Positions 9,519-39,052 of a stretch of DNA of 64,000 nucleotides are shown piece after piece; positions within the stretch are counted from its first letter, which is position 1, and each line of letters begins with the position of its first letter. Made by a program: the position numbers and the translations under genes. The notes under the pieces were generated by a model. The model saw only the letters and a list, made by a program, of their open reading frames with translations, did no database searches and was not told where the DNA came from. Origin of the DNA: Cystobasidiomycetes sp. EMM_F5 (lineage: Eukaryota); NCBI GenBank assembly GCA_051047955.1, contig JBPGPT010000029.1:1-64000 (forward strand), in the 5' to 3' direction.

Positions 9519-10980
9519 ATGGTCAAGCAAGTGCCGTTTGGCAACATTCAAGTACCCGTGCCAGGCTTCGGAGCAATGGGCCTCAGCTTCGGACTCGGCA
9601 GCAATCTCTCACTCGAGGAGGCTGAGCCCGTCCTACTCAAGGCTATCGAATTAGGATGCACCTTCTGGGACACCGCTGTGAGTTAGGCCAGCCGCAATTG
9701 GCAGCTCTGGCATATGCAGCTCTCACACCTGGCGTTGTGCTCCTCATGCAGGTCATATACGCCATGGGCGTAAATGAGCAACTGCTTGGAGATTTTGTAC
9801 GCAAACACAGTGTACGCGACAAGCTGTTCAGTAAGCCTTGATCCCAAAGCATGCATACGAGTCGGTCTGACGCCATGTCAATGTCGACAGTTGCGTCTAA
9901 ATGCGGTTTCGACATCGATTTTGAGGCAAAGAAACCGCTGGGAGTAACCAATTCTGCTGCGCACATCAAAGAATACATTGGTCAGTCGTGTCTCTCACGC
10001 TAAGAATTCATCGCCATTGCTGAACATTGAATAATAACCTACCGTCACGCCTTCAGATGGTACCATCAAAAGGCTAGGCTTTACTCCTGACCTTTACTAT
10101 CTCCATCGTATTGATCCAAGTACGTATAGAAGGACTGTAAATATGGGCCTAATAGCAAGCCAATGATGTGCCACTCAATATCCGTGCAGAAACGCCTCTG
10201 GAAGAGTCTATTCCAGCCTTGGATGAGATTCGCAAAGCTGGCAAAACGAAGTACATCGGCCTATCCGAATGCTCCGCCAAGACGCTTCGCAAGGCGAACT
10301 CTAGTACGTTACCCTCTTGCTGTGGTGTAATCCGGCGGACTCATTACGTTGTTCTAGTTGCGAAAATCGATGCTTTGCAAGCCGAGTACAGCGCTTTCGA
10401 AACCCTTCATGAAACAGACGATCTCATCGCCACAGCAAAGGAGCTCGGTGTTGCATATATGTGCGCTGCTTGCGTTGCCCGTGTCGCGCCAGGCGTAAGA
10501 AATCATTATAACGTCTTCATTGTGCAGAGCATACAGCCCGTTAGGACACGGATGGCTTGTGGATGATTTCCCGTACAAAACCCCCGATGATTTCGCGCCG
10601 GATGACTTTCGAAGGACGGGTGAGCATAGCTGCGGGCTTGAGTCGAGTCTCCTGTAAACAGCTAACGTTGGCTTTTACAACCAGTTCCGAAGTTCCAAGG
10701 TGACAACTTTTACAAGAACCGATCCATACTTGACGAGATCCGCAAGCTGGCGGAACGAAAAGGCTGCAGTTTACCTCAAATCGCGCTTGCATGGGTGGCA
10801 GCTCAGGGGATGATACCGATCCCCGGTACAACAAAGGCGCATCGTCTTGAAGAGAACTGGGCATCACGAGACGTCGACTTCACTGAGGAAGAGTTCAATG
10901 AAATGCGAAAGATAGTGGACAACGCAAAGCCGTCTGGCAACAGGTATAGTGAGGCTCATCAAGCTATGGTCGGACACTGA
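9519..10980 (+). CDS. Aldo/keto reductase (YakC/pyridoxal-reductase-like), many short exons
   Basis: [24 protein letters not shown]...[50 protein letters not shown]. Confidence 0.92.
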
Positions 10981-11170
10981 GGCAAGCGCTGAGCGTCGCT
11001 GGATTGGCACACTATCCGAGCACGCCAGCTGGTGACTGAAAATAGCTAGCAAATCGCAGTGCATTACGTTGTGACCCCACAATATGCTTGCCGATACTCA
11101 TTTTTCGCTGACATCGCCGAAAGCTAGCGACTGCAACGCAATCTGTCTGCTACGTGAGTGGACTGTGCGG

Positions 11171-13454
11171 TCAAGTGAAGATCTGATCATCAAAGAGCGC
11201 AGACCTGCCCCACAAGCCTTTGGAAGCTGAGCACTGTGCTTCACTTTGGGAATCGAAAACCTTGCTAGCAACGCCATTAAGAACAAGAATGTGGAGATTA
11301 GCTGATTTGATTGTTCCTGGTGCACTACCGACGGCGACTGGCTGCCACTGCACGTATTTGTCGGTGTTCGGGGAGCCGGCTCGTGCGAAAGCTGACCAGC
11401 GAGCCGCAATTTCACTTGATAAAGCACTCTGTGCTGAAGTTATGGAAGTTCCGCCCGTTTGGAACACCAGTTGGATATCGTCTGCAATGCTCGCTCAGTA
11501 GCACTCAACGTGCGGATGTGATCGAAACTACCTTGATGGCAGACGCGACCTTTACAGTACGCTATCCCGGCATTCGAGCTGTAGGTGATCCCTGCGTCAA
11601 ACTGTGCGAGCCAGACCTGAGCGGCGTTATGGTGCAGCGTGATATTGACTGCGGCCTGCTGATTGGCGCTGTGCACACTCATACCATCAGCCTCATTAGT
11701 CTGAGCTCAGTGCGCAGGAAAGACTCACCATCTCCAGATCCAATCCGTGCCAAGCTGCTCAAGCTCCGTTCTTACCGAATCGGAGTCGCTAGCGTCGACA
11801 TTGTATAACCCGCTTGCGATGATCTTGTCTGCCCTATCAGAATCGACGAGAGCACGTACGTACGACTCGTAGTAACTAGTTGGAATGGCCTGATCTTGCG
11901 AAACAGCCGCAATAGTAGGAGCAGCTTCATTGATGACTGTAGTAAAGATGATCTGACGCGATGGATTCGACAGGCCACTATTGTCCGTATTCATAGCTTT
12001 CAGGAAGCTTTTGCCTTGCACCAGCTGACCATCGACGACGGGCCGAATGGGTTCGGCAGCACTCACTCCCAAGATTGTGGAAGGAGCCATTGACATCGTT
12101 CTGTCCTGAGCGTCTAGAATATCCTCAACTTTTGCAGTTTGCAAGCATGATCGTCGACTTGTCGATGTGGCTGAGGTGCAATTCGAAGCTAGAGAGTCAA
12201 GAAAGACGGCTCCGACGCTCTCTGCCGTGGTCACAGAGTGATCTCCGTAATTGAGAGGAGCGGAGTGAAGAATCGCTCGGTTAAACAGCGTATTGGCGAC
12301 TGGGACTGTGAGGAGGGTCTTGATGATATCTGCTCCCGACGACTGCCCTGCCAGAGTCACGAGACTGGGGTTTCCTCCGAAAGCGCTAATCGCTGATTTG
12401 ATTGTCTCTGAAAAGTATCACAAAATGCACAGAATTTAGCATACAAACGTATTTGCAAGTCAGGAAAACTGACTCAACGCCTGAATGACGTCCAAAAGAC
12501 CCATATTTCCATTGATACCTGCCGATTGCGCTCGCAAGAAGCCTAGTATACCAAGCCGATACTGTACCGTCACAACGACCATATTTCCAGAGTCCGATAG
12601 AGCAGATCCCTCAATAGCTGGATCAGAACTTGAGCCATAAACGAAGGAGCCACCATGAAGCCATACGAAGACGGGCAAGTTGGAAGCTGATGATGCGGAA
12701 GCTGGCGTATAGATGCTGAAAGTAGTGCACATCAGTCGACGCTGGCTTCTGTAAGGAATTACTAGACCGAACGTACTTCATGAACAGACAGTCCTCGTTG
12801 ATGCTAGGAGAAGCAGACATAGAAGCGCTCTGTGGACATGCGGGAGGAAGGAGACTTGCGTTATATGTTCCGGTCCATGGAATCTTAGCGACTGTCGGCT
12901 ACATGACACGGCAGGGAAAGTATTTAGCAAGCACAACCATCAGGCGATCCTGACGTACCGAGAACCTGCGTGAGCGAACAGGAGCCTCTGCATATGGAAT
13001 TGTATATCGCTTGATTTTCCCAGATAGCGTGGACGCGCCTACAGCATTGCCGAGACCTGGAACACTGATTATACCGCTTCCATGAGTATTAGCAAGTGTA
13101 CTCTGCCAGTAGTTCCAGGTGTCCGAAGCTCTGTGGATTACCCCATCTTTCAGGTATTGCAAATCGGAGGGGTCTGTGCGCAGCTTACACAGTACATGCT
13201 CGACCGAGAGCAGGCAAATCGCATAGCCAAGATATAGCCGTTTGCAGCGAACGGTGATCAAGGCCATGCTTTTCGGCAGGAGTGAGATTAGAGTGTCCAT
13301 TGCGGTAAAAGCCAGCACCGCTTGACTGTACGAAAGAAGGAGACGAGGAAAACTGTCTGTTGACTTGGTCGAGGGGTATTGCGTTGATGAAAGTAAAGAA
13401 CGTGAGTATCGACAGCGCTGCCAGAGCGCTACGATGGAAGGACAGACAGGCCAT
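11171..13454 (-). CDS. Secreted type-B carboxylesterase/lipase
   Basis: Signal peptide; NEDCL, VWLHGGSFVYGS oxyanion region, QYRLGILGF, nucleophile elbow AGQSSGA, FARAGSPN. Confidence 0.9.
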
Positions 13455-22874: not shown

Positions 22875-24814
22875 TTACTGAACCACTTTCTTCAGTACGA
22901 GGACAGTCTTCATGCTTCTAAAGATACACTTCATCAGTTTCGCCGTCATTCCTGCGTCAGCTCGGCGGCACTGACTTTGGCACCACGAAGAAGTGTTCAA
23001 CAGGCATCATAGTTACCTCGGTCGTGGCTGGGTGAGGCAGAATCTCCCAGCGGCGTATTACCATGGCCATTATAAGCCGCATTTCTGCCCAAGCCAGACT
23101 AAGAGTCTGTCAGCTTGACATCAAATTCAGCGTGATGCAGAAACCTCACTTCATTCCTACGCAATTCCGAGCTCCAGTACTGAACGGGATGAAGGCGTTG
23201 CGCATCTCCGCAGTCTCGTTGAACCACCTCTCCGGCATGAACCTGTCGCCTTGCACGAAGATGTTGGCATCTCGATGCATCGTGTACGCCGTTGCTGTAA
23301 CATCAGTCCCTCCAGGTAAGAACAGCCCACATAACAGGGTTCCTTCGCTTGGCACAGTTCTCTCCAAAGGGCCGGGGAGTGTAGGCCATCGCCGCAGTAC
23401 TTCTTTCAAGAATGCATTGAACAGAGGCAGAGCCTCAAGATCCTTGAGGCGAGGCGGACTATCAGGTTCAGGCATGGCTGGTCGAAGCTCTTCGCGGATG
23501 CGATTTTGTAAATCCGCATCTCGGGAAAGCTCCCAACTACGGGCAGTACGTCGGCTTAAATGTCTGCAATTTTGTCACGATTGATATCTTACCACCCGTA
23601 TGTCATAGCTGTCGAGGTTGTGTCACTACCAGCAATCAGAATAGCGCCAGCTTCTGTGATCATGTGGGCTTTGGTGATAGCCGGATGTCCTACTGACGCT
23701 TGGTGCAGTGACTTTAGCAACTAGTACAGAAATCCCCGCATCAGTAGCTTCACCAATGGTATGCCGGTTGCCTTACGTTTGGTCTGACAGAGTCAGTGTT
23801 GTCCAATTCGCCACTGCTTTGCATTTCGCGTAGAATGTTGAAGCCGTAGTTTTGGAAGAATTTCTCCGCATTGTATAGCTTTGTCAATGGTGGAATCGCT
23901 CTCGTCGACATCAATCGTGCGGCCAAAGGCAGGTTATCTTTGACGATGGCTGTGCAGCAGTCGATTCATTTCGCTGCCACACTTGGACAGAAATCACGCA
24001 TACCTGCGAAGAAGACAGTGGCCATATTCTCGACGAGAGTGGATAATTTTCCACTCTGAGTCATTGCCATATCCTGTCCATAAGCTAAACTTCCTGCAGC
24101 GATAGTAGATATTACCCAATGAACCTTAGACTGGGGAAACATCGTCTTACCAATGATGTCGAAGGCTGCCAATCGCATCCAACGGAAGATATCGACGCAT
24201 CCTGCGTTATCTTGATCCTTTTGCATCTGAGCAATGAGCTGATTTGCATACATCTCTAGATCCGGCCCGAATGCATCGAGATTTGCTTTTTGAAAAAGCG
24301 GTAGAAGCAAACTCCTGCGGTACTTCTGTTCTTTTAGATCTTCTATAATGAGAGCATGCTCCACACTAGCAATGCGCTTTCCCCGATAACGTGTGACGGC
24401 TTTTGTGAATTTGCCGCCGTACACCTTTTTGAGCTCGTCAGGGTCGCTGAAGCTGCAGAGATTTGGGGAGATTCGGACGATGGGACCTCGCGTCAAGGTT
24501 AGCCGTAAGCCCAGACCTCACAAATCAATAATGCACATACCATACTGTTGGTGCAGTTCATGAATCCATTCGGATCGACGACCCCGCACGACCGCTTGGT
24601 ACGTGTCGGGCAGTGACGTGAATTTGCACAAGAGCGGGCCAGGAACCTTGGCTAGAGGTGAAAGTAATGCTAGATAGATGACATGGCCTAGATGCCGAAT
24701 TAAGACCCCTCCGACTACGATAGTGAGGCCGAGCCAGAAAATGTGATAGTTCTGTTCAAGTGGCGCATATTTGGACAAGTCCAGCGACAGATACTGGGAC
24801 ATGTAGCCAGGCAT
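22875..24814 (-). CDS. Cytochrome P450
   Basis: N-terminal TM, PLAKVPGP, GPIVRISPN, I-helix LIAGSDTTS, K-helix KEVLR, PERW, heme motif FSTGARNCVG. The last exon ...KTVLVLKKVVQ* stops at 22875. Confidence 0.95.
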
Positions 24815-24898
24815 TCAGAACAGTCGCTCGCTCGGTGTGAGAGGCGGCAGCGAATCTGCTCGAGCGAAAGGTGCAGCTAACGCTGGACAGACCAGACG

Positions 24899-24918
24899 GT
24901 CCCACATCTTTATGGGAC
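24899..24918. promoter_or_regulatory. Cluster motif site in the P450 promoter: GTCCCAC plus inverted half-site ATGGGAC
   Basis: GTCCCA-CATCTTTA-TGGGAC, 85-104 bp upstream of the P450 ATG. Confidence 0.7.
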
Positions 24919-25539
24919 GCACGTCTGCCCCACAAATCAGTGCCTGTATAGTATCATCAGGCACGCTAATGGTGCGGCCGTGCTGCTCCTGCAGCAGAGA
25001 GTTGAGGGAGTTTAATGTAGTCAGAATGCACACGGTCTAAGAATGGTCCCAAAGCAACCGGATTTGCCAAAAGCGTCATCGACTTTCTCACGTTGTGAAT
25101 GAAGGATCCGGCGATGACACCAGTATTTTTGCGTGAAAGATGTGCTACCAATACGATCCTCTCCAACAGCGATGCGTCCCTATCACTTCAGTTGACATCC
25201 ATGAGCCACGCATCGAGAGTATTGGGCGAGACGCTTAAGTGAAATTATAGAACTGCTGCTTCTGACCTGATAACAAATTTTGTTCAGATGCGAACAAGAA
25301 TGCTGTATGTTGGCCATCGCCTCCTGTCCTTTCAGAGATTACGTGGTGAGCTCTCTAGATCCTTGATGAGCTTTATTTTCAGAGCGTGTACAGTATAGCT
25401 ACAAAGCGTTACAAAGCGTTCGCTGAGCTTGGCATGGCCAGTCGAATAAGCGACGGCCATGGCGCGGCGGAAAGATGTCCCTATTTTATCACGTAACGAC
25501 GGAATGGTCAGATCCGTCCGGTAGAAGCACCATTTGCGT

Positions 25540-26317
25540 TTAGGCCGTGGTTGGCGGATAGGGCATCATGCTATCCATGCATGCTCCAACATCATTTGCG
25601 ACCAAAAAGCGCGATACCATGTTGTACGTTGCAGCTATTGCTGCCATTTCGACGAGCTGCTGCTCAATGGAGCTCGCTTGACGACGTTGGAGGAGTGCTT
25701 GCCGAACCCGGTTGTGTAGATGATCCGGGATACGAATGAGGCAGGTGCAAGCATCAGCGTAGAGAATGGCTGCCCGCTCGAGCTCGTCAGTGAATGGGTT
25801 CTCGCTCGAGGATGAGTCTATATCTCGTGTTAGATCCGAGACCCAGCTGAGTTGCTCATCTGTCACGCCCTCGTCGCGAGCAGGTCCCTCGTGCTGCATC
25901 CACTCGTAGACTGCACGATTGCGCACTGCAATGCGAAGCACCTTTTTCGTCGTCAGAGGTTTAAATCATCGAGCAAGTCAGTATCAAAGCCATGCTCCCT
26001 CCCATGCTTCTCAATAGACGGAGACGGCGCACCATCAGCTCTCTGATATTTCCTGGAATTGAAGTGCCAGATCTGATAGCACCCAGCAGCGCATTCCAAC
26101 CGAGCTGAGGTTGCAAACACATGAGCTCGACATCTAATGCGACGAAGTAAAGAAGACTCACGGCTACCTTTGGCGCGTGCAATAATACTGCGTCCAGCTC
26201 CAAAAGACCCCCAGCACCTCTTCTCTCGCGGATGGCATCGGCGGCGGCAGACACGCCCGGCTCTGGCCATATCGGCGCAATGTATTGCACGGATCTTTCG
26301 GAACGCGCCATGCCCAT
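25540..26317 (-). CDS. Carboxymuconolactone decarboxylase / AhpD-like family protein
   Basis: IRERRGAGGLLELDAVLLHAPKVA | GWNALLGAIRSGTSIPGNIRELM | LRIAVRNRAVYEWMQH...LVEMAAIAATYNMVSRFLVANDV. No AhpD CxxC motif. Confidence 0.85.
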
Positions 26318-26436
26318 CCCAGCTTGACGGATAGATACGCTGTTTTCAATTAGCGATACTCGTGCAATTGCGCTTCTTCAGCGGGCAATCCGCCGTGCTG
26401 CCGGCCTTCAGCGGGTCCCGCAAGTCAACATTTACC

Positions 26437-26446
26437 GTCCCACATC
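26437..26446. promoter_or_regulatory. Cluster motif site in the bidirectional CMD/FAH promoter (GTCCCACATC)
   Basis: 10-bp identity to the P450 site (24899-24908); about 120 bp from the CMD ATG and 112 bp from the FAH ATG. Confidence 0.72.
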
Positions 26447-26554
26447 ATACTGCCAGAACCCGCGTACGAGCATATCCTATGAACGTCTTAAAGCAACCTC
26501 TTCATTCCCGTACCTGCATATATCCAGTTGCTGCTCGTCTCCTCGAAACACGCC

Positions 26555-27666
26555 ATGCTTGACTGTGAACGGCTCATTCGATTCAGAACGGGCGGAGCTG
26601 TACACTATGGCGAACCCATACTCGACACCGATAGCGCCAATCAGGACTTTCAAAGAGCAGTTCTCAGCGGCAGCGTCCGAGCTAGAGTCATCTCTGCGCC
26701 ATCAGGCATCTTTAGCTCGGATGCAGCCCTGACCTCAGAGCAAGTGCAGGTCGACGAATTACTCTGCCCACTCGACAGACGCGACGTACCAATCATTCGC
26801 TGCATCGGATTGAATTACAAGCAACACAGTACGTTTGTGTTATACTTTGCGACAAACGCTGGCCGTAGTGGCCATAATCGGATGATAGGGTCTGAAAGAG
26901 TTGCCTCCTACAGTTCTTGAAGCTGGCAAATCACTGCCGCCGTATCCGTCCATCTTCTTCAAGCCATCTACTTGTCTGGCCGGACCAGGGGCTGCGGTGG
27001 AAATACCCAAGATCTGTCAGAACCCACCACAAGCCGACTACGAAGGGGAGCTATGTGTGATCATTGGGAAAACAGGCAAGAACATCTCGCTCGGTGATGC
27101 AATGTCGTATGTGTTCGGCTACACCTGCGGAGACGACGTAAGTTCGCGTGCTTGGCAGCGGGAGAAGGAATTGGCCGGAGTAGTGCCCCAGTGGGGTTTC
27201 TCCAAGGGTTTTGATGACTTTGCAGTCATCGGTCCATGCGTAGTGACTAGCAAAGTGGGTATTACTTGATGCGATGCGTTACGAAATGCTGAATGACAGA
27301 CCCGCCAGCTTATTCCCGATCCTGCGGGGCTGCACATGCGTACTCTGGTCAATGGCGAGGTACGGCAGTCTACGCCAATTGCAGACCTCTGCTTCGATGT
27401 CAAAACCCTCGTCAGCTTCATGAGCTCTGGTACCACCTTAGAAGCTGGAACGGTCATCATGACGGGTACGCTGCATTTTCTATACACGACGCTTGCCCAT
27501 CCCCGCCTAATACGATATTGGCGCTTCCTTGACACTTGCAGGAACACCTGGCGGAGTTGGGTTTGCTCGCAAGCCGCATCCGTCTTGGCTGAAAGAGGGC
27601 GATGTTGTCGAGGTGGAGATTACCAAGATTGGCACTCTGCGCCATACAATGTCCGAGGAGAAGTAG
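26555..27666 (+). CDS. Fumarylacetoacetate hydrolase family protein (FAHD/Fmp41-like)
   Basis: IRCIGLNYKQH, PSIFFKP, ADYEGELCVIIGK, GYTCGDDVSSR, SKGFDDF, GTVIMTGTPGGVG, LKEGDVVEVEITKIGTL. Confidence 0.93.
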
Positions 27667-27917
27667 TATGCGATAGCTCGAGCACGTACATACACCCGAT
27701 GTAGGCATAGGAAAGCATAGGAAAACGTATGCGAGCCCAGTCGAACTGTCTCCACTTGCGAAACTGCCAGCACCAGGTTTGCCCATATCGCAACTCTGCA
27801 AGCTCTGACCAGCACATCCGCGGCGACAGAAGATGCCATGCAGACCACGCTGATCTAGCGACCCCATACTCGCTATTTGCCGGAGACTCCAGGTTACCAC
27901 GTCCAAGTCCGCCAGCG

Positions 27918-30790
27918 ATGACGGCGAAACTCGACCGAACCTGCTCGCACTGCAGCAGGCAGTTCTTGAAACCTGCTCATCTGCGACGGCATCTCGAGGT
28001 CCACGCGAAGAGCCGACCCTTTCTATGTCGTTTGTGTGGAAAATCGCTGAGTCGGGCTGATGCTCTGGCTCGTCATATCCGGACAGCCCACTACAACGGA
28101 ACGTCACAAAGTGCGGTGGACGTTGGGCATTCTGCAGTGCCGCCGCTGGTGGATCCCCTCGCTCAATTGGCGTCAGACCCGGCCAGCGCCGTTAGCGACT
28201 CTGCATGGAGCATGGATGGTGCCGTAGCCCGGACTGACTCTATCGACGTTGCTGTCATCACGTCCACTGCGCGAGGACCAATGAATTCTGCACCACTTCC
28301 TCCGCTTGGTGTGACAGTTGCATCTATACGCGAGCCGCCCGCCAACGACAGGCAGGAGAGAGACGATGTTGCGATATTACAAAGTGCAGGAGAGCTCCTT
28401 GACGTACCGGACTTCGCCAGTACCAATGACCAAAGTCTTGTGGAGCCTGCTCCTCTTGTCAGGGATGACATAAACTTCAGGCAACAGCCGGACAGCCAGC
28501 TTGACAACTTTCTGAATATGCTGGCTTCCATTGGTCAGCCGACTAGCTCTCAAACAGTATATCCCATCTTCGGTAATCAAGATCTACAATCTAACTTTGG
28601 GACAGGAGCAGAGTGGGCGCTTGCCTCTAACGAGGGGAGCGCACCACCAGCGATCCACACTATCTTTGGCGCGAATCCGGCCAACGATGGCCCTTACAGC
28701 TGGCTGGACGATTTTCTCGTTCCCGAATGCTGGAGTAGCGGAGAAATACAGCAGTCGAATATCATTCAGCCTCTCCAACACGGCATGCCTCCGGGGATAC
28801 CGCCTCTCGAGGCACATCTCGAACCGCCGTTTGCTACAATGAGCAATAACGATCACGACGACTGGTCGCTTCCTGGTCATGCATTGTTTGGCCGTATTCG
28901 TGAGAATGATGGCAACAGGACGCACCAGCAGGAGGCGTCACCGGCTGATATTTTGCGAGAACTGGAATTGACGTCGGCGGTGAGCAATCTCAGCGGTGCG
29001 AATGATGCTAGGCTTACAGAGAGCGCTCGTAGGCACCGAGTCGAGATGATGTAATCCCATCGGAGAGCATGCTGGCAGCATGCATTCATCTGTACTTCCG
29101 CGACTTTCATCCACACGCGCGTATACTCCATCGCTCTACTTTTGACCGGCGACAGGCATCGCCCTTGCTCGTCGCGAGCGTGTGTAGCATTGGCTACATG
29201 TTAATGGGTACGGATCATGCGACAGAGAGAGGGCTGTGGATCTTTTATCGATTGCGCCGGGTTATAGCAGCAACAGTACGTGATGACAGTCAAATGCTAC
29301 GTAATCAAGACCAAGCTGGGCTGAATCTGTTCCTACAATCTCTGCCACAATGGCTTCTAGTGGGATTCAGAGCACTGTACCGAGAGGCAACGCTTCATTC
29401 TGCTCCTGGCGGGCACCTTGAATCAGTGCATGTCGCTTTTATTGGGACGTCCAGAGATTTCGTCTTCCGATGAAGTATACAGTGCAGCCCTTATATCGCT
29501 AGCGCGCGCGTTAAAAGGCCGTCAGTGGCTAGACCAGAATCAAATTGACTATGTTGACGTGGCCGACTTGAATGATGACGAGCTGAATCTACGGTGGACG
29601 AGATGGTTCCGACAAGAAATGCTCAGGCGGTGAGTCGAATTGTGGCAAGATGGTGACCTTTCGAAGTATAACTCGTTCGGCATGCCCCTTTTACAGTGCT
29701 TGTCTAGCTACAAACCTGCAAGCTGCCGAGCTGGCGATACGAACCGGGTCCCCTCAAGCGTATTTGAAATTCTTGACGCGACAAGAGAAGTTTAGTGATG
29801 CGCTATTCGAAGCTGAAGACGCCGCATCATGGCGGATACTTCTTAGCCAAAGGCGTGCCGCACGCAACAATGCAGTTTCAGGGAACCAAGATTCGAGCGA
29901 TCTTTTTAGCATGACATGTTTGGCGCAGGAAATCCAGCAGCTGCTCATTGTCGAGAGCATGCAGGATGTCCAAACAATGAAAACGGTATGCGAACCGATG
30001 CGTATCCAGTACGACAGGATGACCCACCTGGCGGAGCAGCTGGGAATCCCGAGAGGCGCTCCAGCCGCAAGAATGTCCTTGGACATGATGTGGCACTATT
30101 GCTGCATGTTTCGGCTTGCAGGTGTCGAACTACTTTCTCAATTCTGCGATAACGTATGGTCTCCGACTGACCGGCATGCCCTTGAGACTTTCAATCACTC
30201 GTTGATGCTACCATTCCTGATGATACCGAAGGGAAGACTGGCCGTCTTGCATGCATGCGCACTTCTGCAGGCGGCCCGCATGGCCGATGATCTTGTTCTG
30301 CTGGCATATCCGTGAGTCTATATTCGAGGGTCTCCTGGATGGGCTCATATAATGCGTACGCAGAATCATCAACCATGCGACGCGCCTTGTCATAGCCTGG
30401 CTGACCATACCACGGTCGGAGAATCGCTCTGCTCCGTCATTGCACATCCGACATACGGATATGAGCGTTAACAATGGCGAGTGGACGAAGCTGGGTCATG
30501 CATTAGATAATGCTGCACCCCAGGGCTCGCCAATAACAGAGCCGCACAAGCTTGTTTCGGCCTTTGTCCTGGACGACATCGGGCGACTCGCTGTTGACGG
30601 ACTATTCGAAGGAAAAGATCCTCGCGAGGACATCGAATGGTGAGCGACAGAATTCCGGGATGGCATCCGTCATATGGTGCTAAGAGCGGCATCAACTGAC
30701 GCGCTATGCAGTCTCAAATCTGCAGTAATTAGACTTCTTCGCCGAGGGGCTTTGTTCCAATGCGACTCTTCTTCACTGCAAAACACATAG
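27918..30790 (+). CDS. Two-finger C2H2 transcription factor with fungal TF middle domain (cluster regulator)
   Basis: CSHCSRQFLKPAHLRRHLEVH and CRLCGKSLSRADALARHIRTAH; 'LYFRDFHPHARILHRSTF...LLVASVCSIG' and 'WTRWFRQEMLRR'. The 3' end is inferred by splicing. Confidence 0.88.
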
Positions 30791-31168
30791 CATATAGCAT
30801 ATCTATGGTTGCTCATCAACACGATTGCATACAAAACCTAGAGATCGGTTGCCTGCGACGGGGCAGTCATATGCAGTCCCGCCGGCAGTCGCGCCGTGCA
30901 AAGGCGCGTTGTGGGCTGGTAACCGCGAAGCCGAGCTGAAGACCGCTGGCAGCGGCTGGGGAGCTGTCTTTTTTATACCCAGTAGCCATCCCGTGTCAAG
31001 CAAAAGCCGAACTCGCTGCCACGTGGTGTGTAGTCGGCTACAAAAGCGCAGCACAAGTCCCAGTCTCCAACGGTTGCACCAGCTTCAGGCCGGTGTCACC
31101 CACCCCACATTGACCATTTGCTCTCTATTCCCCGCGTGGTGCCCCTTGTCCCCGTGATAAACCTATTT

Positions 31169-31175
31169 GTGGGAC
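31169..31175. promoter_or_regulatory. Cluster motif site in the MFS promoter (GTGGGAC)
   Basis: TGTGGGACC is the reverse complement of the P450 site GGTCCCACA; 147 bp upstream of ATG 31322. Confidence 0.68.
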
Positions 31176-31321
31176 CTTGCGGTGGTAACTGTACATGCAG
31201 CCTGCGCCGCCGGAGAGCGTAAGGTCCGCCTCTTATTCCACTGCCAGAAGCCTTCTTGAAGAGAGGCAGATCGAATCGGTGCGTCTCGCTTGTAGACATC
31301 GACACTTCCAAGTCGGAGGAA

Positions 31322-33770
31322 ATGACACTCGACAAAGCTGCGGGTCTCCACGCTATAACGCCTACGGCTTCAGAAAAAGGTCACGACCAGTTCATCGAGG
31401 ACAATACTGCTCAACCCTCCGTCACTCAGAACTTGTCGTATGACAATGATGAAGAAGAGCCGGTTCTGCACTGGCGCACCTGGGTCGCCCTTGCGGCACT
31501 ATGGATGCTCAACTATGTCCAAGTCTTTGCCCTGACAGGACCTCCAGCTGTGGTACGAAGTCCTTGACTCAAACGTATGCTTCTAATTCTAGAGCTGACG
31601 AGAAAGCTACCGTTCGCTAGCTGTCGTACCTCGGCGAGAGCGTAACAGATGGGTCTGTCCAAGAAAAATGGGTGCCGAATGTGCTTTCGTTGGTGCAGGC
31701 CGTTGCGGGTCCCATCATAGTCAGTTTTATCGTTTATTGGCCTCCGTACCCGGCCAAAAGCTGACACGCAGCATCTAGGCTTTCGCATCGGATTCCTTTC
31801 AGAGCCGTAAACTAATCTTACTAGCCACCTGCACATGCTCCTTCGTTGGGTCTGCTATTGCACCAGGGGCTGAGAACATCTACCGCGTGATTGGCGCCCA
31901 AGTTCTTATTGGTGTAGGGTTTGCAAGCGTGCCTTTGGCCTACTGTATTCCGTCGGAAGTGCGTCCTTGAACTTTTTGGTCAGATCCATCGCTGAGCTAT
32001 CACATGGCAGATTATACCGCGACGGTGGAGACCGTGTGAGTCACTACGTAGGGCGACGATCGAAGGGCATAACTGACATATCAGCCTAGTGGCGCAAGCT
32101 AGTGTTCAATTTGCTGCGAATGCGGCTGGCGTTACAGCACCAATGTAAGCCGTAGGTCGCACCTGCAGACCGGGCATCTCTAACACTCGTTTGCTCGTCA
32201 TAGCATTGCAGGCGCATTCACCAAGTACAGTCTTCTAGATGGCTGGAGAAAATTCTATGTACGAGATGCTGAATCACCAGCGCAATCCCTTTTCAGCTGA
32301 TGCTTCGCCGCACATGCCTGTTCCAGTGGGTAGAGATGGGTCTATGGGGTGCGACAGTCGCAGGCATCGCTGTTGCATACCGGCCACCCCGGCGGCGGTC
32401 TCAGTTGGATGACGCTTCTCTGTCTGGCAAGATTAAGAAGCTCGACGTGCCGGGTATGCTTCTAGTACGCGCAGTCACAATTCCCAGCAAGTGCGCGGTC
32501 TGGCTGAGGAGTGTTATTGTCTATACTAGCTGGCTGCAGGCCTGACACTGTTACTCACCGGCCTGGGTCTTGGCGCCAACCCGTATCCGTGGTCGAGCGG
32601 CAGAGTCGTAGGTACCCTGGCTTCGGGATGTGCCACTCTGGTCGCGTTTGGAATTTATGAATGGAAAGGTGCGTTACTGTGCTTGACGCAGCCGCTCAGT
32701 CTGGGAGGTTGACATCGACTTTGGCAAAACGATCAGTGAACCCAATTGGCATCTTTCATCACGCACTTTTCACTGGTTCTTGGCGCATCTTCCCACTTCT
32801 GCTTGCACTCATGTTTATCGAGGGTGTCATGTTATTCACGGTCATCATCTTCTATCCCGTCATGTAAGCGCACTGTGACTGATTCGGAGCTACACAAGGC
32901 TGATCAAAAAACAGTACGGGGGTGCTGTTCGAGCCTGATCCCTTGCTTCAGACCGTTCGGCAGGCGCCTTTCCAGACTGCCGCTATGTGTTCAAGCGTCA
33001 TCTATGGCATTTGGGCAAGCAAGTATAGGACTCTGCGCTGGCCTCTTTTTGCAGGCTTTGTATTCTTTACAGCCGGCTTAGGTAAGAGTGACGTGCAGGT
33101 TTTGGCTACTTACCGTCTTGACTGAGCAAAACTATGCTACAGTCGGTATGGCTACAGTTCAGCTGAACACGTCTACCAGCTTTGTGGTCTTCAACGGATT
33201 AGCCGGTCTTGGATTTGGAGCACCCCTCGTTCTTATCATTTCGGGAGCGCAACTCGCGACTCCTCAATCGCTCATTGCTACTGGCACTGCTGTTATTACT
33301 AGCACGCGAGCTGTTGGTGAGTATACAAGGATGATCACCATGGACCTAGGAACCGAGAGCTGATGTGTAGGAGACTCTCAGCCGCAGCGGTCTTCACTGC
33401 CATCTACGCTGCAGCCGTCAATACGAGATCAGCCACTTATGTCCCCACTTACGTTGCGGAGGCAGCGGTCAGCGCTGGATTGCCTCGGTCGTCGGTGGGA
33501 GCGTTTGTCGAAGCGCTCGCAACTAAGAACAATGCAGAGCTCGCGGCCATTCCGGGTATCAACCCTAGCATCATTGGGGCAGGCGTGAAGGCACTGCTTC
33601 AAGCACTTGCGGACAGCTTCCGCGTGGTCTATATCATCGGGGCCGCTTTTGGTGGACTGGCGTGCCTCATCTGCCTGTTGCTCGGCGACCAATCTGCAAC
33701 GATGAATTACCACGTTGACGCTCCGATGGAAGAACTGACGGCAAAACACCGTGAAGACATCAAGGCATAG
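31322..33770 (+). CDS. MFS transporter (14-TMS DHA2 / TRI12-like)
   Basis: EEEPVLHWRTWVALAALWMLNYVQVFALTGPP, ASDSFQSRK, YCIPSEIIPRRWRP, DGWRKFY, YRPPRR, YPWSSGRVVGTL, ADSFRVVYIIGAAFG; many short exons. Confidence 0.9.
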
Positions 33771-34220
33771 GAAGTGAAGGGGATGGCGAGCAGACTTGAC
33801 ACTATACTTGTGTTCGCACGCTTTATTGAACAGGGACCCTGTATGCGGATAATCGTATCAAAATTTGTGTAGGCTAATAATAAGCATTGCATCTTTCTAA
33901 CGGTGCTGCGATTGCTTGCGCAGTCCTTGGCAGTCTACCTACATTACGATTCGCCTACATGCTGCAACAGTCCCGTCAACGTTCTATGATGGTGTTTGAG
34001 AGTATAGATGTACACTGTCATTGCTGCAACGGTGGTTCCGGTACTTTGCTATAGATCAATGGGATGAAGCTTCATCTTTGCTGATGATGCTTCCTCAACA
34101 CTGCGACTTTGTGTCAGCTCCACGCGCTATGAAGTCCTCGCGCAGCACATCCAGATCGCTCGCATCCCTTCGCAGACTTTCAAATCTAATAAGGCGTTAC
34201 CACATTGACCGCGGTACCCG

Positions 34221-34270
34221 GTCCCACTATGCTCCAGAGTCTGACTGCCCCGGTACACTACGAGTGGGAC
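34221..34270. promoter_or_regulatory. Paired inverted cluster motif sites in the dioxygenase promoter
   Basis: GTCCCACT (34221-34228) and AGTGGGAC (34263-34270), 94-143 bp upstream of ATG 34364. Confidence 0.72.
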
Positions 34271-34363
34271 ACGGCACAGCATGTCAGCTGAAGTTTGCCC
34301 ATCACCCTCTAAAGACAGCTCTATCGTCAGACTGCCCCCCTACTACCAACAAGCGGACTCACA

Positions 34364-35637
34364 ATGGACGCTCGCATAAAGATCAAGCGGATAGCCTACG
34401 CAACTTACACGCACTCGGACATGGCGTACACAAAGCAATTCCTGACTGACTTTGGACTGACCGAGGTTTGCGTCATGGATAAGCGACACTACTTCCGGGG
34501 GTATGGCGACCTGCCCTACATCTACATTGCCGAGGAAGGCGAGCAAGACGAGGCAGTCTTTCAGGGCATGGCATTTGAGGTTGAGAGCGAGGAGGAGCTC
34601 CAGCGAGCGTCACGCTTGAAGGTAGTCGGTGCCTGCCAATACTGTGGAATGCTTTTCAGCTGGTTGACGTCACTCCGCTTCATCACCCAGGGTGCTACTG
34701 GTATTCGAGAACTCGACGGTCCAGGCGGCGGTTTGGCAACTACTCTGTATGACCCGATAGGTCTGGCGGTACACCTGGTGTATGGAACGCAGCTTCGCCA
34801 GGTCGATTTACCATCAGACCCCACCTTGCCTGCAAATCAAGGCTTATCCGATAACCGAGCGAAAGCGCGGCCACCTGGTAGCTTCCAGCGCTTTGATACG
34901 ACGTCCTCGGTACCTGTGCACAAGCTTGGGCACTATGTTCTTTATCTTCCCGATTTTCAGGTGTAAGACAATGGTGTCATTCAGCAGCCAGCATCGGCTC
35001 ATTGCATTCTGTTAAGCATGTTCGACTTTTACACCAAGGTACTCAACTTTGCCCCTAGCGATCTTATGATACGCGCCGATGGGAACACGGCGGGCGCGTT
35101 CTTACACTTGGACAGAGGCGACGAGTGGGTAGATCATCGTAAGTGTCGCAATAAATCCTCGGCGTGGCCGTAGCAGAAGGGGGAATTTTAGGCTAATGGA
35201 CACGCTATGGCTGGAATGCAGATACTCTGTTCATTTTTCAGCCGCCCAACTGCACCGAACCCAGACTACACCATGCTGCGTTCGAGGTCTTCGACATCGA
35301 CCATGAGGTGAGATGCTCACGCCGAATTACCTGCCAGAGACTCATATCTCACTGTAAATAGCTCCGCGCACATGAAGAAATGGTGAAGAAGGGTTACCAA
35401 CTAGCGTGGGGAGTTGGTAGACATATCTTGGGCAGTCAGCTGTTCGACTATTGGTATCAAAATGGCGATGGCTTCAAGGTTGAGCACTACGCGGATGGAG
35501 ATCTCGTCAATCAGCGTACCCCTGTAGGCCGTCATCAAATGAGCGCGGGCCCGAAGAAGGAGCGAGACACGTCAATTTGGGGTCCTGATTTTCAGCCAAC
35601 TTTTCACACTACGTCTCCACTGCGTGTCAAGGCGTGA
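34364..35637 (+). CDS. VOC-superfamily (extradiol-type) ring-cleavage dioxygenase, trihydroxytoluene-oxygenase-like
   Basis: Two VOC domains; candidate metal ligands in HKLGHYVL, LHHAAFEV and VEHYADGD; FLHLDRGDEWVDHH; WGVGRHILGSQLFDYW. Confidence 0.88.
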
Positions 35638-36518
35638 CTGCGAGTGTGACCAGAGGTTCATATCATCCTGTTGTACGTGCAAGTCTGACTGATAAAGCTT
35701 AATGATATCATTGCATGCCGTAAACTCCTGAACATACGTGCCATGGCCAGATGATAGTCTCAAGTGGGAAAACCTGAGTCAGCTCGCGGTCGTTGAAGCT
35801 GCGGACTGGGGGAGCGGATTGGGGTAGCTTCAGCGAAAGGGCCTTGGAAGCCCGACGTTCAAGTTCACCAAAAATTCTGTTGGGGACGTTGACGTTGCTC
35901 ACATCTGCGAGCGTCTGCAGTGTCCGGAAAAGCGAAACAGACGGGTTCTGTGTTATTCAGCGAGCGTACGGATCATGGAACTGCTGACTGACTGGCTGCT
36001 CTTGGTTATGGAATACATTGGGCGACTCTGGCTAGCGCGTCCGAGTGCTCTGGAAGGAGCGACTTCGCTTCGGAAGCGAATGCGCACCAGTCATTATGGT
36101 CATGCCAGCTGTGATACAGTCCTTAAATCAACGCAAAGATCGATAAATGCTGCCTCTGCTTGTCCCGGATCCCATATATACTCGGAAATCGTCCATATAG
36201 TAGCTGGTCGCGAATTGCCTTTCAAGTTCCACAGCAAGGCTGACGCTAATCCATGATAGTCGAAGTCTCCATCAGATGTGGTATGGTCTGGATTACTGCA
36301 TCGCTCATTGGACCATCGCAACAGTCTCAAGATGTTGGGTACGCAAGGACGGGTGCGAAATGCCCATGGTGACGTGGAGAAGACAACTCGAGGCAGCGCA
36401 CACGGTGCATACCGGGCTATTGGCTGCAGGTAGAATGGCAGCATGCGAGTCGTGCTGGCGGGTGCCTCTACCGCTGCGGTGCCGCATGCCGAGAGGTTAC
36501 CACAATCAATGTAGACTG

Positions 36519-36525
36519 GTGGGAC
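36519..36525. promoter_or_regulatory. Cluster motif site in the monooxygenase promoter (GTGGGAC)
   Basis: 125 bp upstream of ATG 36650, flanked by a duplicated CAATCAAT. Confidence 0.68.
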
Positions 36526-36649
36526 TCGCAATCAATCCCCACTCGACAGCTGGCGAGGCTTGCTGTACTACTTGCACAATGCTAAACTACTCCTGCTAAC
36601 CTAAAAACTGAAACAATCACTGACATCTGCCAGAAACGACGAGGCCATC

Positions 36650-39052
36650 ATGACCATCGAAGCAGAGATGGCACGGGATCTGCGCTGTCAGGTCCTCATC
36701 GTTGGCGCTGGACCGGTGGGACTGCTCACAGCACTCAAGTTGCATCAAGCCGGCGTGGATGTAGTCATTGTAGATCGTCAACCTGCTAGATACCCTTTAC
36801 CAAGGTCTGGCTTGCTGCGTACGATATGAGGCGATTCGTAAACCCAAAGGCTGATTTCGCGTCCGACAGAGCTGTAACATGCGACCACGAATCTCAGCGA
36901 TCACTGGCTGCTGTTGGGTTGCAAAAAGAGTTGCAAACGGTCCTGGAGCATACATTAGGCAAGGGAGGGGAAAACGGGACTAACTTCTGTTGGCGCGACA
37001 AGGATCATCGATGTCAGTCACGACTACTAGAGCCGATGAGTGGACTCATCTCATATCAAGCGTTATTTCTGTGTAGTGATAGTGGATCTACACTGGGAAC
37101 GACCGACTAGATCCGGCCTGCCATTTGCAAAAGGCTTCGCGCAACCAGAGCTCGAAGGCTTGCTCGAAGACACATGCATAGCTCGGGGCATCAGGATGTA
37201 CCGTGGATACAGTACGCGTAACACTCGCGCCTACTCGTATCGTTATTGATGACATTTTACAGGTCTTAACAGCCTAGCCCAAGATGAATGCAGCGTGAAG
37301 GCAACATTGACACCTCACCAGCGCGAGAAGAAGGCGATCACTGTTGAATCATCACAGGCAGCTTGCCGCATGCAGAGTATGCGTCCAGATCCGTCTACGC
37401 CCTGCTTGAGAGACGCAATCAGTGACGCGGAGCAAGGTCGTACCCAAGAAATTAGAGTCACCGCCAAGTACCTCGTCGGTAGCGATGGTGCTAACTCGAC
37501 CGTCAGACGCCTTGCTGGTATCACAAACACCGAACTAGACTTTGAGAATGACTGGCTCATATTGGACCTGGTGAGATCGCCCAAGCCTCCGAGCCCTATC
37601 CCTCACAGTCTAACAATGCCCCGCTCAATCTTGCCGTCTAGCTTCTTGTAGATGGCTACGAGCCTCCAAAACTCAAAAAACTCGGAGCAGCGCAAATCTG
37701 TAATCCTGCAAGACCAACTACCATCGCTTCGGGACAAAAAAGGCGTCGTCGCTTCGAGTTTATGCGCTTGCCGGGCGAGAGCAGGGAAGACCTTCTTAGC
37801 GACGCAAAAACTTGGGAGTTACTAGGACCATGGGGCTGGACACAGGTATGATGGTGACAATAACGAGCTGGCGACCGAAGATTGACCGATTCTATGCACA
37901 GGGTAACGTAGTCATCGAGCGACGGGTTATATACACATTCCATGCTAGGTGGGCCAACGACTTCTACAAAGATAGGGTTATACTTGGTGCGGTTACTTTC
38001 GCTTTCCACATTATTGCACTCCGCGCACTTCCTGATCGAGGCGGTTTAAACTGACTGCTGTGTTCTGCAGCTGGCGATGCAATGCATCTCATGCCCCCAT
38101 TCATTGGTCAAGGGCTGAACTCAGGCTTTCGTGATGCAAGCGCGCTCGGTTGGAGGATACCACTGCTTGTCTCCGGCATTGCGAATAGCAAGGCATTACT
38201 GGACAGCTATCACCATGAACGCTTCACGCACGTGCGCAAGCTCACTGTAAGCATCATCACTCCGTCATGTCCCCTTTGCTTCAACAACCCAGTGAAAGCG
38301 GGACAAGCACTGACATCGCATTGCGACGATTTCTCTCTGCATCTTGTCTACAGGAGCATTGCATTCTTCTGGGCAAGGTTGTGTGCGAAACAAACCCTGA
38401 TGCTGCCGTCAGACGACATGCCGAAATGCGCGCAAATCGTAAGTCGTGTCAATGCGTCAGTAATCGACGTCCGAAATCTTGGCAGCACGAGGAGTTTCGT
38501 GAAGGCGCCTATGGCTGACGCTTCGCTATCAATTCTGATTCTTCAGCGCCCAAATCTGGCTATGATCCGCCTCTCGGCCGCCCGGGCTTAATGACTGACC
38601 AGGAGGAGAGCGGACGTCTCTCCCTACAGCGGCCCTTGCGATTTGCCATGCAGGGTGGCGGGATGTGCGACAGGCTTGAACGATCAAGCTCAACGGCGCA
38701 ATCTGAATGTCGCGTTTGCGAAAATACTGTGGCATTACCGCTCTTTGACGAGGTGTTCGGCTACGGATGGAAAGTCATCAGCATGACGTGCAGTGAGCCG
38801 CTGGCGGCTGCGCGCCCGGACTTGCGGAGCTTCTTCAAATCGCTCGGTGGTAAGGAAGCGTACATACCACCAGAGTCCGACATCACCGGCGATTACCGAG
38901 ATTGGTTTACAACCTGCCTGAGTCCCGATGCAGTCGTGGTAGTGAGGCCTGACTTCTACGTATATGGCCATGCTCCCATTCAAGCAATTGATGACCTGCT
39001 CGAAGGACTACAGCGCCGCCTTTGCGAGCGGCCTGAGAAGCAGACGATATGA
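36650..39052 (+). CDS. Class A FAD-dependent aromatic hydroxylase, MhpA (3-(3-hydroxyphenyl)propionate hydroxylase)-like
   Basis: The first exon, missed by the ORF track, reads VLIVGAGPVGL...YPLPR | AVTCDHE. Further motifs: FAQPELE, YLVGSDGANSTVRR, RRRFEFMRLPGE, YTFHARWA, GDAMHLMPPFIGQGLNSGFRDA, and C-terminal VVVRPDFYVYG. Confidence 0.92.

Follow-up and report, generated by a model that had tools for sequence, protein, structure and literature searches.

A seven-gene cluster in a cystobasidiomycete yeast with a hydroxylase, VOC extradiol dioxygenase-like and FAH-family core related to a widespread bacterial module

Described systems and the cluster under study

Fungal aromatic catabolism has been described almost wholly in terms of intradiol, gentisate and homogentisate routes. 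In bacteria, the 2,4-dinitrotoluene (DntB/DntD/DntG) and orcinol pathways use a flavin monooxygenase to form a trihydroxytoluene, which undergoes VOC-type extradiol cleavage to a 2,4-dioxo product; an FAH-type enzyme then hydrolyses this product to yield pyruvate. The mhp system of Escherichia coli (MhpA-MhpF) includes the FAH-family protein MhpD; its dioxygenase, MhpB, is of the LigB type and not of the VOC type, and MhpC, an alpha/beta-hydrolase, and an aldolase/dehydrogenase are required as well. We compared these systems with a cluster of seven genes, including a class A flavin hydroxylase, a VOC protein and an FAH-family protein, that lies at 22957-39052 of a 64,000-nucleotide stretch of DNA from Cystobasidiomycetes sp. 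EMM_F5 (contig JBPGPT010000029.1, positions 1 to 64,000; the whole stretch is hereafter called the window). The Dnt and orcinol pathways, which act on a xenobiotic or on orcinol, resemble the core of this cluster in the logic of their steps. The mhp system resembles it in that the window's hydroxylase falls in NCBIfam models named for MhpA; it differs in its LigB-type dioxygenase, alpha/beta-hydrolase and aldolase/dehydrogenase, which are not in the cluster as scanned with Pfam. A further likeness is found in hcdABC, a three-gene operon of Pseudomonas mandelii 7HK4 for the catabolism of 7-hydroxycoumarin and 3-(2,4-dihydroxyphenyl)propionate. The operon acts on 3-(2,4-dihydroxyphenyl)propionate, a resorcinol-type substrate, via a 2,3,5-trihydroxyphenyl intermediate followed by meta-cleavage, and it joins genes for a class A flavin hydroxylase, a type I extradiol dioxygenase and an FAH-family hydrolase in one unit, much like the window core (PMC6222606).

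According to papers from 2021, 2022 and 2025, fungal extradiol (meta) cleavage has not been described or characterised, and the VOC-type clades of fungi have yet to be studied (PMC10512348, PMC8896014, PMC12420386). The 2022 paper treats the meta pathway as not characterised in fungi and discusses an extradiol enzyme of the LigB type (PMC8896014), and the 2025 comparative study reports large VOC and cupin clades without reference enzymes, stating that fungal VOC-type extradiol dioxygenases warrant investigation (PMC12420386). A fungal cluster for gallate and 1,2,3,5-tetrahydroxybenzene comprises a flavoprotein monooxygenase, an FAH-like protein, an MFS transporter and a transcription factor; it differs from the window cluster in having a DUF3500 protein and a short protein without known domains in place of a VOC dioxygenase (PMC10832562). 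No characterised fungal cluster that combines a monooxygenase, a VOC protein and an FAH protein was found in the literature searched, most subscription journals lying outside it. An earlier note on this DNA, made from the sequence alone, had regarded the pathway as uncharacterised, which agrees with this result. The note had also stated that such modules were reported in ascomycetes; the same literature held no such report, whereas ascomycete-like contigs do carry the modules.

Pfam scans of open reading frames (ORFs), database homologues and gene models together placed seven intact, intron-containing genes at 22957-39052, between two unrelated convergent genes, in the order P450 (-), carboxymuconolactone decarboxylase/AhpD-like protein (CMD; -), FAH (+), regulator (+), MFS (+), VOC (+) and hydroxylase (+). 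The scans covered stop-to-stop ORFs of at least 55 aa over the cluster and at least 95 aa over the rest of the window. Models were built with a splice-aware dynamic-programming modeller, and their junctions were then refined with homologues and by reading the DNA. Six of the spliced models are complete ORFs with no internal stop and with GT..AG introns of 43-108 nt (P450, 528 aa; CMD, 209 aa; FAH, 301 aa; MFS, 587 aa; VOC, 338 aa; hydroxylase, about 605 aa), and the model of the regulator gene is approximate. Family assignments are based on single exons and database homologues, not on the spliced proteins. The arrangement of seven adjacent genes between convergent, unrelated flanks had been described in the earlier note and was recovered here with the same order and strands. 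Its attribution of the DNA to a basidiomycete yeast is borne out by the deposited model of the hydroxylase gene, which belongs to Cystobasidiomycetes sp. EMM_F5 (Basidiomycota, Pucciniomycotina).

The three core genes are the following.

36650..39052, + strand: class A flavin hydroxylase of the PRK06183 (MhpA-like) subfamily; nine exons, about 605 aa, homologue-guided model
36650-36804, 36870-37039, 37083-37211, 37263-37570, 37642-37845, + strand: hydroxylase exons 1-5
37902-37986, 38071-38246, 38354-38438, 38547-39052, + strand: hydroxylase exons 6-9
34364..35637, + strand: two-domain VOC protein, type I extradiol dioxygenase-like; five exons, 338 aa
34364-34624, 34691-34962, 35017-35138, 35222-35307, 35362-35637, + strand: VOC exons
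26555..27666, + strand: FAH-family protein; four exons (26555-26828, 26914-27254, 27300-27465, 27542-27666), 301 aa

The three-enzyme core in bacteria and fungi

Bacteria widely carry an unnamed hydroxylase-extradiol-FAH module, of which the window locus is the fungal variant; the locus is real, conserved and uncharacterised, and it is not categorically new. The earlier note had proposed that the core follows the order of a hydroxylase, a VOC extradiol dioxygenase and an FAH enzyme, and this triad proved to be conserved in bacteria and to recur in fungi.

We assessed the VOC protein by its homologues, because at the exon level its gene gave no Pfam match at E<=0.01 and a single VOC exon gave no PDB match with phmmer. 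In a word-index search, the first large VOC ORF returned 11 non-self relatives, seven of which carry PF00903. A profile of the family, searched against 1.84 billion representative proteins, matched 3213 at E<=1e-3 and 385 at E<=1e-30; judged by these matches, the family is large rather than rare. The nearest homologue, P0020 from Acaromyces, shows 50% identity across 337 residues; its NCBI name is glyoxalase/dihydroxybiphenyl dioxygenase family protein. The next homologues, at 35-43% identity, are 'VOC domain' or hypothetical proteins of Stereocaulon, Phialemonium, Hyaloscypha, Cudoniella, Cladosporium, Paecilomyces and Talaromyces. Two truncated gene calls, P0002 and P0003, are 57-60% identical to VOC exon 1 and run into unrelated sequence right after ASKL/ASRL, the position of the window's first VOC intron, suggesting that closer relatives sharing this intron position probably exist.

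Against solved type I extradiol dioxygenases, the profile matched, over both domains, 3b59 (1.2e-19), BphC 1han (6e-17), 9wgj (1e-16), homoprotocatechuate 2,3-dioxygenases (HPCD; about 1e-10) and XylE, of the catechol 2,3-dioxygenase class (4e-10). Across ten full-length homologues, 55 columns are invariant, of which the window protein keeps 53; H168, H218/H219, H235/H236, Y277 and E288 are among them. The His/His/Glu ligands, called intact in the earlier note, are indeed present: H168 (KLGH), H236 (LHHAAFE) and E288 (VEHY) lie in invariant columns, and the HMM alignment sets them against LGH, HH and E in BphC 1han, where these residues are the metal ligands. The invariant DHH (217-219) and FDYW (Y277), as second-sphere candidates, are both in the window protein and, judged by position, may be the counterparts of the His and Tyr that act in catalysis in BphC or HPCD.

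As a proxy for the window protein, we used the AlphaFold (AF2) model of P0020 (pLDDT 76.7), which has the full two-domain fold. In Foldseek, about 300 columns of it aligned with solved type I extradiol dioxygenases, with TM values of 0.6-0.75 and 16-21% identity; the matches were 3b59, 3lm4 (2,3-dihydroxybiphenyl dioxygenase of Rhodococcus RHA1), AphC 7q2a, LapB, XylE 1mpy, BphC 1han and HPCD. The solved enzymes and the window's family have the two-domain VOC fold and the metal triad in common, whereas the family has invariant motifs of its own (DHH, HHxxFEV, GRHxLGSQxFDYW and EHYxDGD) and a longer interdomain linker, which is of low confidence in the P0020 model. On this alignment and predicted model, we regard the type I extradiol fold and metal site as established. 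The PDB entry 9wgj (323 residues), a full-length profile match at E 1e-16, is titled 'Catechol 1,2-dioxygenase', a title that misfits the VOC fold; it is not among the Foldseek matches listed for P0020 and may be a relevant recent structure.

The flavin hydroxylase gene matched FAD_binding_3 (PF01494) on three exons (51.1, 30.7 and 54.8 bits). GxGxxG, DG and GD are the defining FAD/NAD(P)H motifs of class A flavoprotein hydroxylases, and the model carries GAGPVG, DGANSTVR and GDAMHLMPPFIGQG. Its exon 2/3 junction is uncertain, and its last exon may contain an in-frame intron. The deposited model of this gene, P0200 (EMMF5_005050; 378 aa), omits exons 2-3 and runs into introns at its 3' end; the model of about 605 aa includes the C-terminal domain. 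The best NCBIfam model for P0200 was NF004829 (PRK06183 'MhpA-like' subfamily), with 272.2 bits against a cut-off of 390, a shortfall that arises because the deposited model lacks exons. The full-length relatives P0201 and P0202 pass this subfamily cut-off with 578 and 568 bits. The MhpA equivalog NF004827 was not reached by the partial model (154.6 against 966).

The FAH gene matched PF01557 (FAA_hydrolase) on two exons with 98.1 and 53.5 bits (cut-off, 23.9), and it shares a divergent promoter of 237 bp with the CMD gene. Its product belongs to the small FAH subgroup, the solved relatives being HHDD/CHM isomerases, diketo-deoxyrhamnonate hydrolase, acylpyruvase FAHD1 and maleylpyruvate hydrolase. 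At the exon level it lies below every NCBIfam equivalog cut-off (DhyDRhmHlse, 66.8/500; HpaG C-terminal, 38.6/276).

Next, the neighbourhoods of VOC relatives were scanned in metagenome contigs (585 confirmed) and in bacterial genomes with one per species (595 confirmed; L081-L160), and the best-scoring 80 loci of each scan were kept. The counts below therefore describe the closer relatives of the window VOC protein, not all VOC proteins; in the bacterial and metagenome tallies that come first, a locus was counted if it had at least 5 kb on both sides of the VOC gene, and a partner if it lay within 5 kb. Among 65 bacterial species-representative loci, an FAH gene was found in 62, an MhpA-like hydroxylase in 39 and an acyl-CoA synthetase-like ligase in 35, and three loci had neither FAH nor hydroxylase. 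The corresponding counts in 21 metagenome loci were 21 for FAH, 17 for the MhpA-like hydroxylase and 14 for acyl-CoA synthetase. By NCBIfam, six loci are tight operons of a TetR regulator, a PRK06183-type hydroxylase, the VOC protein, an HpaG-like FAH protein and the acyl-CoA synthetase PRK07529. Gene orders were VOC-FAH-hydroxylase, as in Streptomyces, Mycolicibacterium and sphingomonads, or hydroxylase-VOC-FAH-acyl-CoA synthetase. NF004829 is the best model for the window hydroxylase and for most of the scanned bacterial partners, with NF004831 scoring slightly higher in two loci.

In 14 of the 65 bacterial loci, a molybdoenzyme resembling the pyrogallol hydroxytransferase large subunit lies near the VOC-FAH-ligase genes (e.g., L082, 11245-12900). 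Twelve of these 14 loci are without a flavin hydroxylase, suggesting that the molybdoenzyme is an alternative hydroxylating partner. An Amidohydro_2 protein, of a family that includes resorcylate decarboxylases, occurs in 7/65 loci and OmpW in 18/65. The bacterial operon, found in Pseudomonas, Burkholderia/Paraburkholderia, Ralstonia, sphingomonads, Streptomyces and Mycolicibacterium, thus has the same three families as the window core, and its VOC protein is 33-40% identical to the fungal P0020. It differs from the window cluster in being intron-less, in having TetR and usually an acetyl-CoA-synthetase-like ligase (35/65) and OmpW, and in being without the P450, CMD protein, MFS transporter and C2H2 regulator. 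It is also functionally uncharacterised and reaches no equivalog cut-off.

Twelve fungal-like metagenome loci were examined by Pfam. FAH was found in 6/12, FAD_binding_3 in 4/12, a Fungal_trans regulator in 5/12 and a P450 in 2/12, and nine of the twelve had at least one partner. The loci with partners are as follows.

L006: P450, hydroxylase, VOC, Fungal_trans regulator, FAH
L005: hydroxylase, regulator, FAH, VOC
L078: hydroxylase, VOC, regulator, FAH
L025: regulator, P450, VOC
L004 (2698-9952): CoA-transferase III, 3-hydroxyacyl-CoA dehydrogenase, FAH, VOC in a row
L041 and L050: FAH and VOC
L036: hydroxylase and VOC
L008: VOC and regulator

The regulators of L005 and L025 match the C2H2 and Fungal_trans parts of the window's regulator. 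The co-location of the core in many other genomes indicates that the cluster arrangement is more than chance, and the hydroxylase, VOC, FAH and regulator genes are a recurrent fungal cluster core. The gene set of L004 hints at CoA-dependent handling of the FAH product, in parallel with the bacterial acyl-CoA synthetase. In L041 (6593-8317, 11124-11702), the FAH-VOC pair adjoins a class B (FMO-like/Baeyer-Villiger-type) flavin monooxygenase in place of class A, as well as a retroelement endonuclease/reverse-transcriptase fragment.

Finally, a quick, unrooted maximum-likelihood tree was made of 75 VOC proteins, namely that of the window, 7 from named fungi, 2 fungal-like metagenome ORFs and 65 from bacteria; loci that lacked full flanks, or whose ORFs fell outside 280-400 aa, were left out. 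All ten fungal rows fell on one side of a branch with an SH-aLRT support of 98. Within them, the window and Acaromyces proteins paired (support 99) opposite eight rows of ascomycete type (93). Among the bacterial rows, proteobacterial ones come nearest. Several branches of the tree are long. This topology fits, and does not prove, a single old fungal VOC lineage rather than a recent transfer into the yeast.

Accessory genes, promoter words and flanks

The other four genes of the cluster and the two genes that converge on it are listed below.

22957..24814, - strand: cytochrome P450; six exons (24814-24541, 24486-24004, 23949-23777, 23720-23593, 23536-23150, 23098-22957), 528 aa, junctions read from the sequence
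25540..26317, - strand: CMD (carboxymuconolactone decarboxylase/AhpD-like) protein; three exons (26317-26162, 26104-26033, 25941-25540), 209 aa
27918..30643, + strand: C2H2 and Fungal_trans transcription factor; start at 27918 or at an upstream in-frame ATG at 27729, 3' exons approximate
31322..33770, + strand: TRI12-like MFS transporter; 12 exons, 587 aa, ab initio model
ending at 22449, + strand: C1-tetrahydrofolate synthase, left flank, converging on the P450 gene (- strand, stop at 22957)
from 39613, - strand: large C2H2 protein, right flank, converging on the hydroxylase gene (+ strand, stop at 39052)

The P450 gene matched PF00067 on two exons (106.4 and 29.2 bits) and encodes the haem-Cys motif FSTGARNCVG; in the Atlas, its exon fell in generic P450 clusters with no informative subfamily. 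The CMD exon gave no Pfam match at E<=0.01, and its phmmer matches in the PDB were at chance level. Its exon-level score for PF02627 was 16.2 bits against a cut-off of 23, because an intron splits the domain, and PF02627 was present on 21 of the 22 non-self matches of the protein (Atlas lead, 0.92). The redox activity of AhpD-type peroxidases is based on a CxxC pair; the CMD protein is without this pair, the site reading AVYEWMQH. In the word-index search, the named proteins closest to it were actinobacterial (38-46% identity) and none of the homologues was fungal; as the search is word-limited, this is only a hint about the origin of the CMD gene.

The MFS gene matched PF06609 (TRI12) on two exons with 25.8 and 28.0 bits (cut-off, 23.2). 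The regulator has two C2H2 fingers, from 27942 and 28026 (zf-C2H2, 31 bits), and a Fungal_trans domain (35.3 bits). We consider it the likely dedicated regulator of the cluster. The P450, the CMD protein and the TRI12-like MFS transporter would be lineage-specific additions; the P450 is an occasional member, and the membership of these genes, the CMD and MFS genes in particular, is unproven. The roles suggested for the P450, the CMD protein and the efflux-type transporter are guesses.

Two short words recur in the upstream regions of the cluster as candidate shared promoter elements.

27893, 31182, 34196, 36496, no strand assigned: GTTACCAC/GTGGTAAC (8-mer)
24899, 26437, 31169, 34221, 34264, 36519, no strand assigned: GTCCCAC/GTGGGAC (7-mer)

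GTGGTAAC occurs four times in the 64 kb, and each copy precedes one of the regulator, MFS, VOC and hydroxylase genes. Of the ten copies of GTCCCAC/GTGGGAC, six lie upstream of the P450, CMD/FAH, MFS, VOC (two copies) and hydroxylase genes, and ahead of the MFS (31169-31189), VOC (34196-34270) and hydroxylase (36496-36525) genes a distance of 13-25 bp separates the two words. Taken within the window alone, these words were not significant, as random window segments gave such an 8-mer in 62/300 draws and such a 7-mer in 57/300 draws. In the twelve independent fungal-like loci, the 7-mer was present in 6 copies in the 8.4 kb upstream of VOC homologues, compared with 14 copies in the other 118.7 kb (Poisson P of about 6e-4, for a single post hoc motif whose upstream copies fall in 4/12 loci). 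We regard the GTGGGAC-type word and GTGGTAAC as a lead, namely a candidate binding site for the cluster's regulator.

Elsewhere in the window, Pfam identified ordinary genes, namely those for Pam17, an FAD-linked oxidase, an aldo-keto reductase, a carboxylesterase, RPA1, a SUZ-domain protein, a homeobox protein and a chitin synthase. The aldo-keto reductase (+) and carboxylesterase (-) genes, at 10156-12777, are about 10 kb upstream of the cluster and are separated from it by RPA1 and C1-tetrahydrofolate synthase; there is no sign that either belongs to it.

Possible chemistry, alternative explanations and significance

We propose that the cluster is a catabolic or detoxifying cluster for a phenolic compound, built on an ancient three-enzyme module that bacteria also have. 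We infer every chemical step, and we hold this general scheme to be probable with moderate confidence. The PRK06183-type hydroxylase would hydroxylate a phenol to a vicinal diol, the Fe(II)/Mn(II) VOC enzyme would open the ring next to the diol, and the FAH enzyme would act directly on the ring-fission product; the P450 might serve for an upstream hydroxylation or O-demethylation. The VOC-FAH pair is near-obligate and usually adjacent, suggesting that the ring-fission product passes straight to the FAH enzyme. In addition, no alpha/beta-hydrolase, semialdehyde dehydrogenase or aldolase was found in the window's cluster by Pfam or among the annotated recurrent neighbour families, which also points to a direct FAH step. 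Pathways that meta-cleave a trihydroxy ring to a 2,4-dioxo acid follow such a logic, and the hcdABC, dinitrotoluene and orcinol pathways are of this kind.

By analogy and from the bacterial context, we favour a resorcinol/hydroxyquinol-type substrate. The diol would then most likely be on a 1,2,4-trihydroxy (hydroxyquinol-type) ring derived from a resorcinol-type compound. In this trihydroxy case, the ring-fission product would be a 2,4-dioxo acid, from which the FAH enzyme would release pyruvate and a (3-oxo)acid; a fitting scheme would run from the phenol to the trihydroxy ring, a 2,4,6-trioxo acid, pyruvate plus a 3-oxoacid and, finally, a CoA ester. The molybdoenzyme, Amidohydro_2, ligase and OmpW genes of the bacterial loci and the CoA genes of L004 would be circumstantial indications of this version, to which we give, on analogy, somewhat less than an even chance. 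Taken at its fullest, the locus might provide the first gene-level case of VOC-type meta-cleavage in fungi, one that is old in Dikarya and takes resorcinolic phenols (orcinol, alkylresorcinol or hydroxycoumarin-derived) via a trihydroxy ring to pyruvate and a 3-oxoacid, under C2H2/Fungal_trans control via a GTGGGAC-type element and extended by the P450, the CMD protein and the efflux-type MFS transporter. We put forward this combined claim tentatively, and its full extent is doubtful.

Several observations weigh against these proposals. VOC proteins include non-dioxygenases as well. The homologues lie far below all equivalog cut-offs, so that the substrate class is unreadable from the sequence; P0020 scored 61.2/321.4 for HpaD, 52.4/366.5 for BphC (23dbph12diox), 44.5/320.2 for catechol_2_3 and 38.5/450 for HsaC, and the scores of P0009, P0012, P0028 and the VOC proteins of the bacterial operon were similar. 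Besides hydrolases, the nearest solved relatives of the FAH protein include isomerases and decarboxylases. Three fungal-like loci (L001, L002 and L019) have the VOC gene without a partner in the sequence available, and the hydroxylase of L006 belongs to another subgroup, PRK06126 with Rng_hyd_C. The transporter matches the Pfam family of trichothecene efflux pumps, which fits export better than uptake. The earlier note had added the P450, CMD protein, MFS transporter and regulator to the pathway; of these, the regulator gained support from its homologues in two fungal-like loci, whereas the P450 is beside the VOC gene in just two of the twelve, and CMD or MFS homologues were found beside it in none of the 80 metagenome loci. 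That the cluster is self-contained, as had been claimed, is likewise unproven: bacterial versions usually add an acyl-CoA synthetase, and L004 adds a CoA-transferase and a 3-hydroxyacyl-CoA dehydrogenase. The plant or lichen phenolic that the note proposed as substrate is also unproven. Finally, hcdABC is likened to the core by its description, and the protein sizes of 62, 31 and 20 kDa given for it leave the two-domain status of HcdB ambiguous (PMC6222606).

The efflux-type transporter bears on the first alternative, in which a phenolic is inactivated by hydroxylation and ring opening and exported via the TRI12-like MFS (PF06609), its carbon not necessarily being used for growth. Such a role has been proposed for fungal extradiol enzymes in the 2022 paper (PMC8896014), and the cluster is without CoA-activating or other downstream enzymes, unlike the bacterial operons and L004. 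However, the FAH step, conserved in 62/65 bacterial and 6/12 fungal-like loci, makes sense mainly if the product reaches central metabolites, and no MFS match accompanies the VOC gene in the metagenome loci. We consider pure detoxification unlikely.

A second alternative is a fragment of a catechol-type (mhp/xyl-like) meta pathway. A simple catechol made by the hydroxylase would be opened by the VOC enzyme to a product of the 2-hydroxymuconic-semialdehyde type, the FAH protein would be a later hydratase, decarboxylase or isomerase, and the hydrolase, dehydrogenase and aldolase would be encoded elsewhere. The MhpA-named models of the hydroxylase fit this alternative, as do the best structural and profile matches of the VOC protein (catechol, alkylcatechol, dihydroxybiphenyl and homoprotocatechuate dioxygenases) and the HHDD/CHM isomerases and OPET decarboxylase among the FAH relatives. 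However, the alpha/beta-hydrolase, semialdehyde dehydrogenase and aldolase are in neither the cluster nor the annotated recurrent neighbour families, and the near-obligate, mostly immediate adjacency of VOC and FAH suggests consecutive steps. We therefore consider it improbable.

It is very improbable that the VOC protein is not ring-cleaving but a metal-dependent VOC protein of another kind, be it isomerase, glyoxalase-like enzyme or binding protein, in a neighbourhood for other chemistry. Its position below all equivalog cut-offs would be compatible with this, and its top structural match, 3b59, stands in the PDB under the label 'Mn(II)-bound glyoxalase', without an assigned function; however, the protein keeps the full two-domain architecture, the His/His/Glu triad and both invariant motifs, DHH and FDYW, and it is consistently paired with an aromatic hydroxylase and an FAH enzyme. 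We rejected, as highly implausible, a set of tailoring genes of a secondary-metabolite cluster with the VOC protein in ring rearrangement: a P450, an FAD monooxygenase, a TRI12-like MFS and a pathway-type regulator are typical of fungal biosynthetic clusters, but no polyketide synthase (PKS), non-ribosomal peptide synthetase (NRPS), terpene synthase or prenyltransferase domain was found in the scanned ORFs (at least 55 aa in the cluster and at least 95 aa in the rest of the window), housekeeping genes flank the cluster on either side, and the core triad is a bacterial catabolic-style operon with TetR, acyl-CoA synthetase and OmpW/FadL-type uptake proteins.

The preferred explanation is thus that the cluster probably encodes a fungal ring-opening route for a plant-type phenol. 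It offers a three-enzyme core with a defined partner set, together with a candidate regulator and promoter motif. VOC homologues are present in named, culturable fungi (Acaromyces, Paecilomyces, Talaromyces, Cladosporium and Hyaloscypha), and the very common, unnamed bacterial operon is suited to working out the chemistry first. If the substrates are indeed resorcinolic plant or microbial phenols, the pathway would matter for biocatalysis and for how plant defence compounds are turned over.

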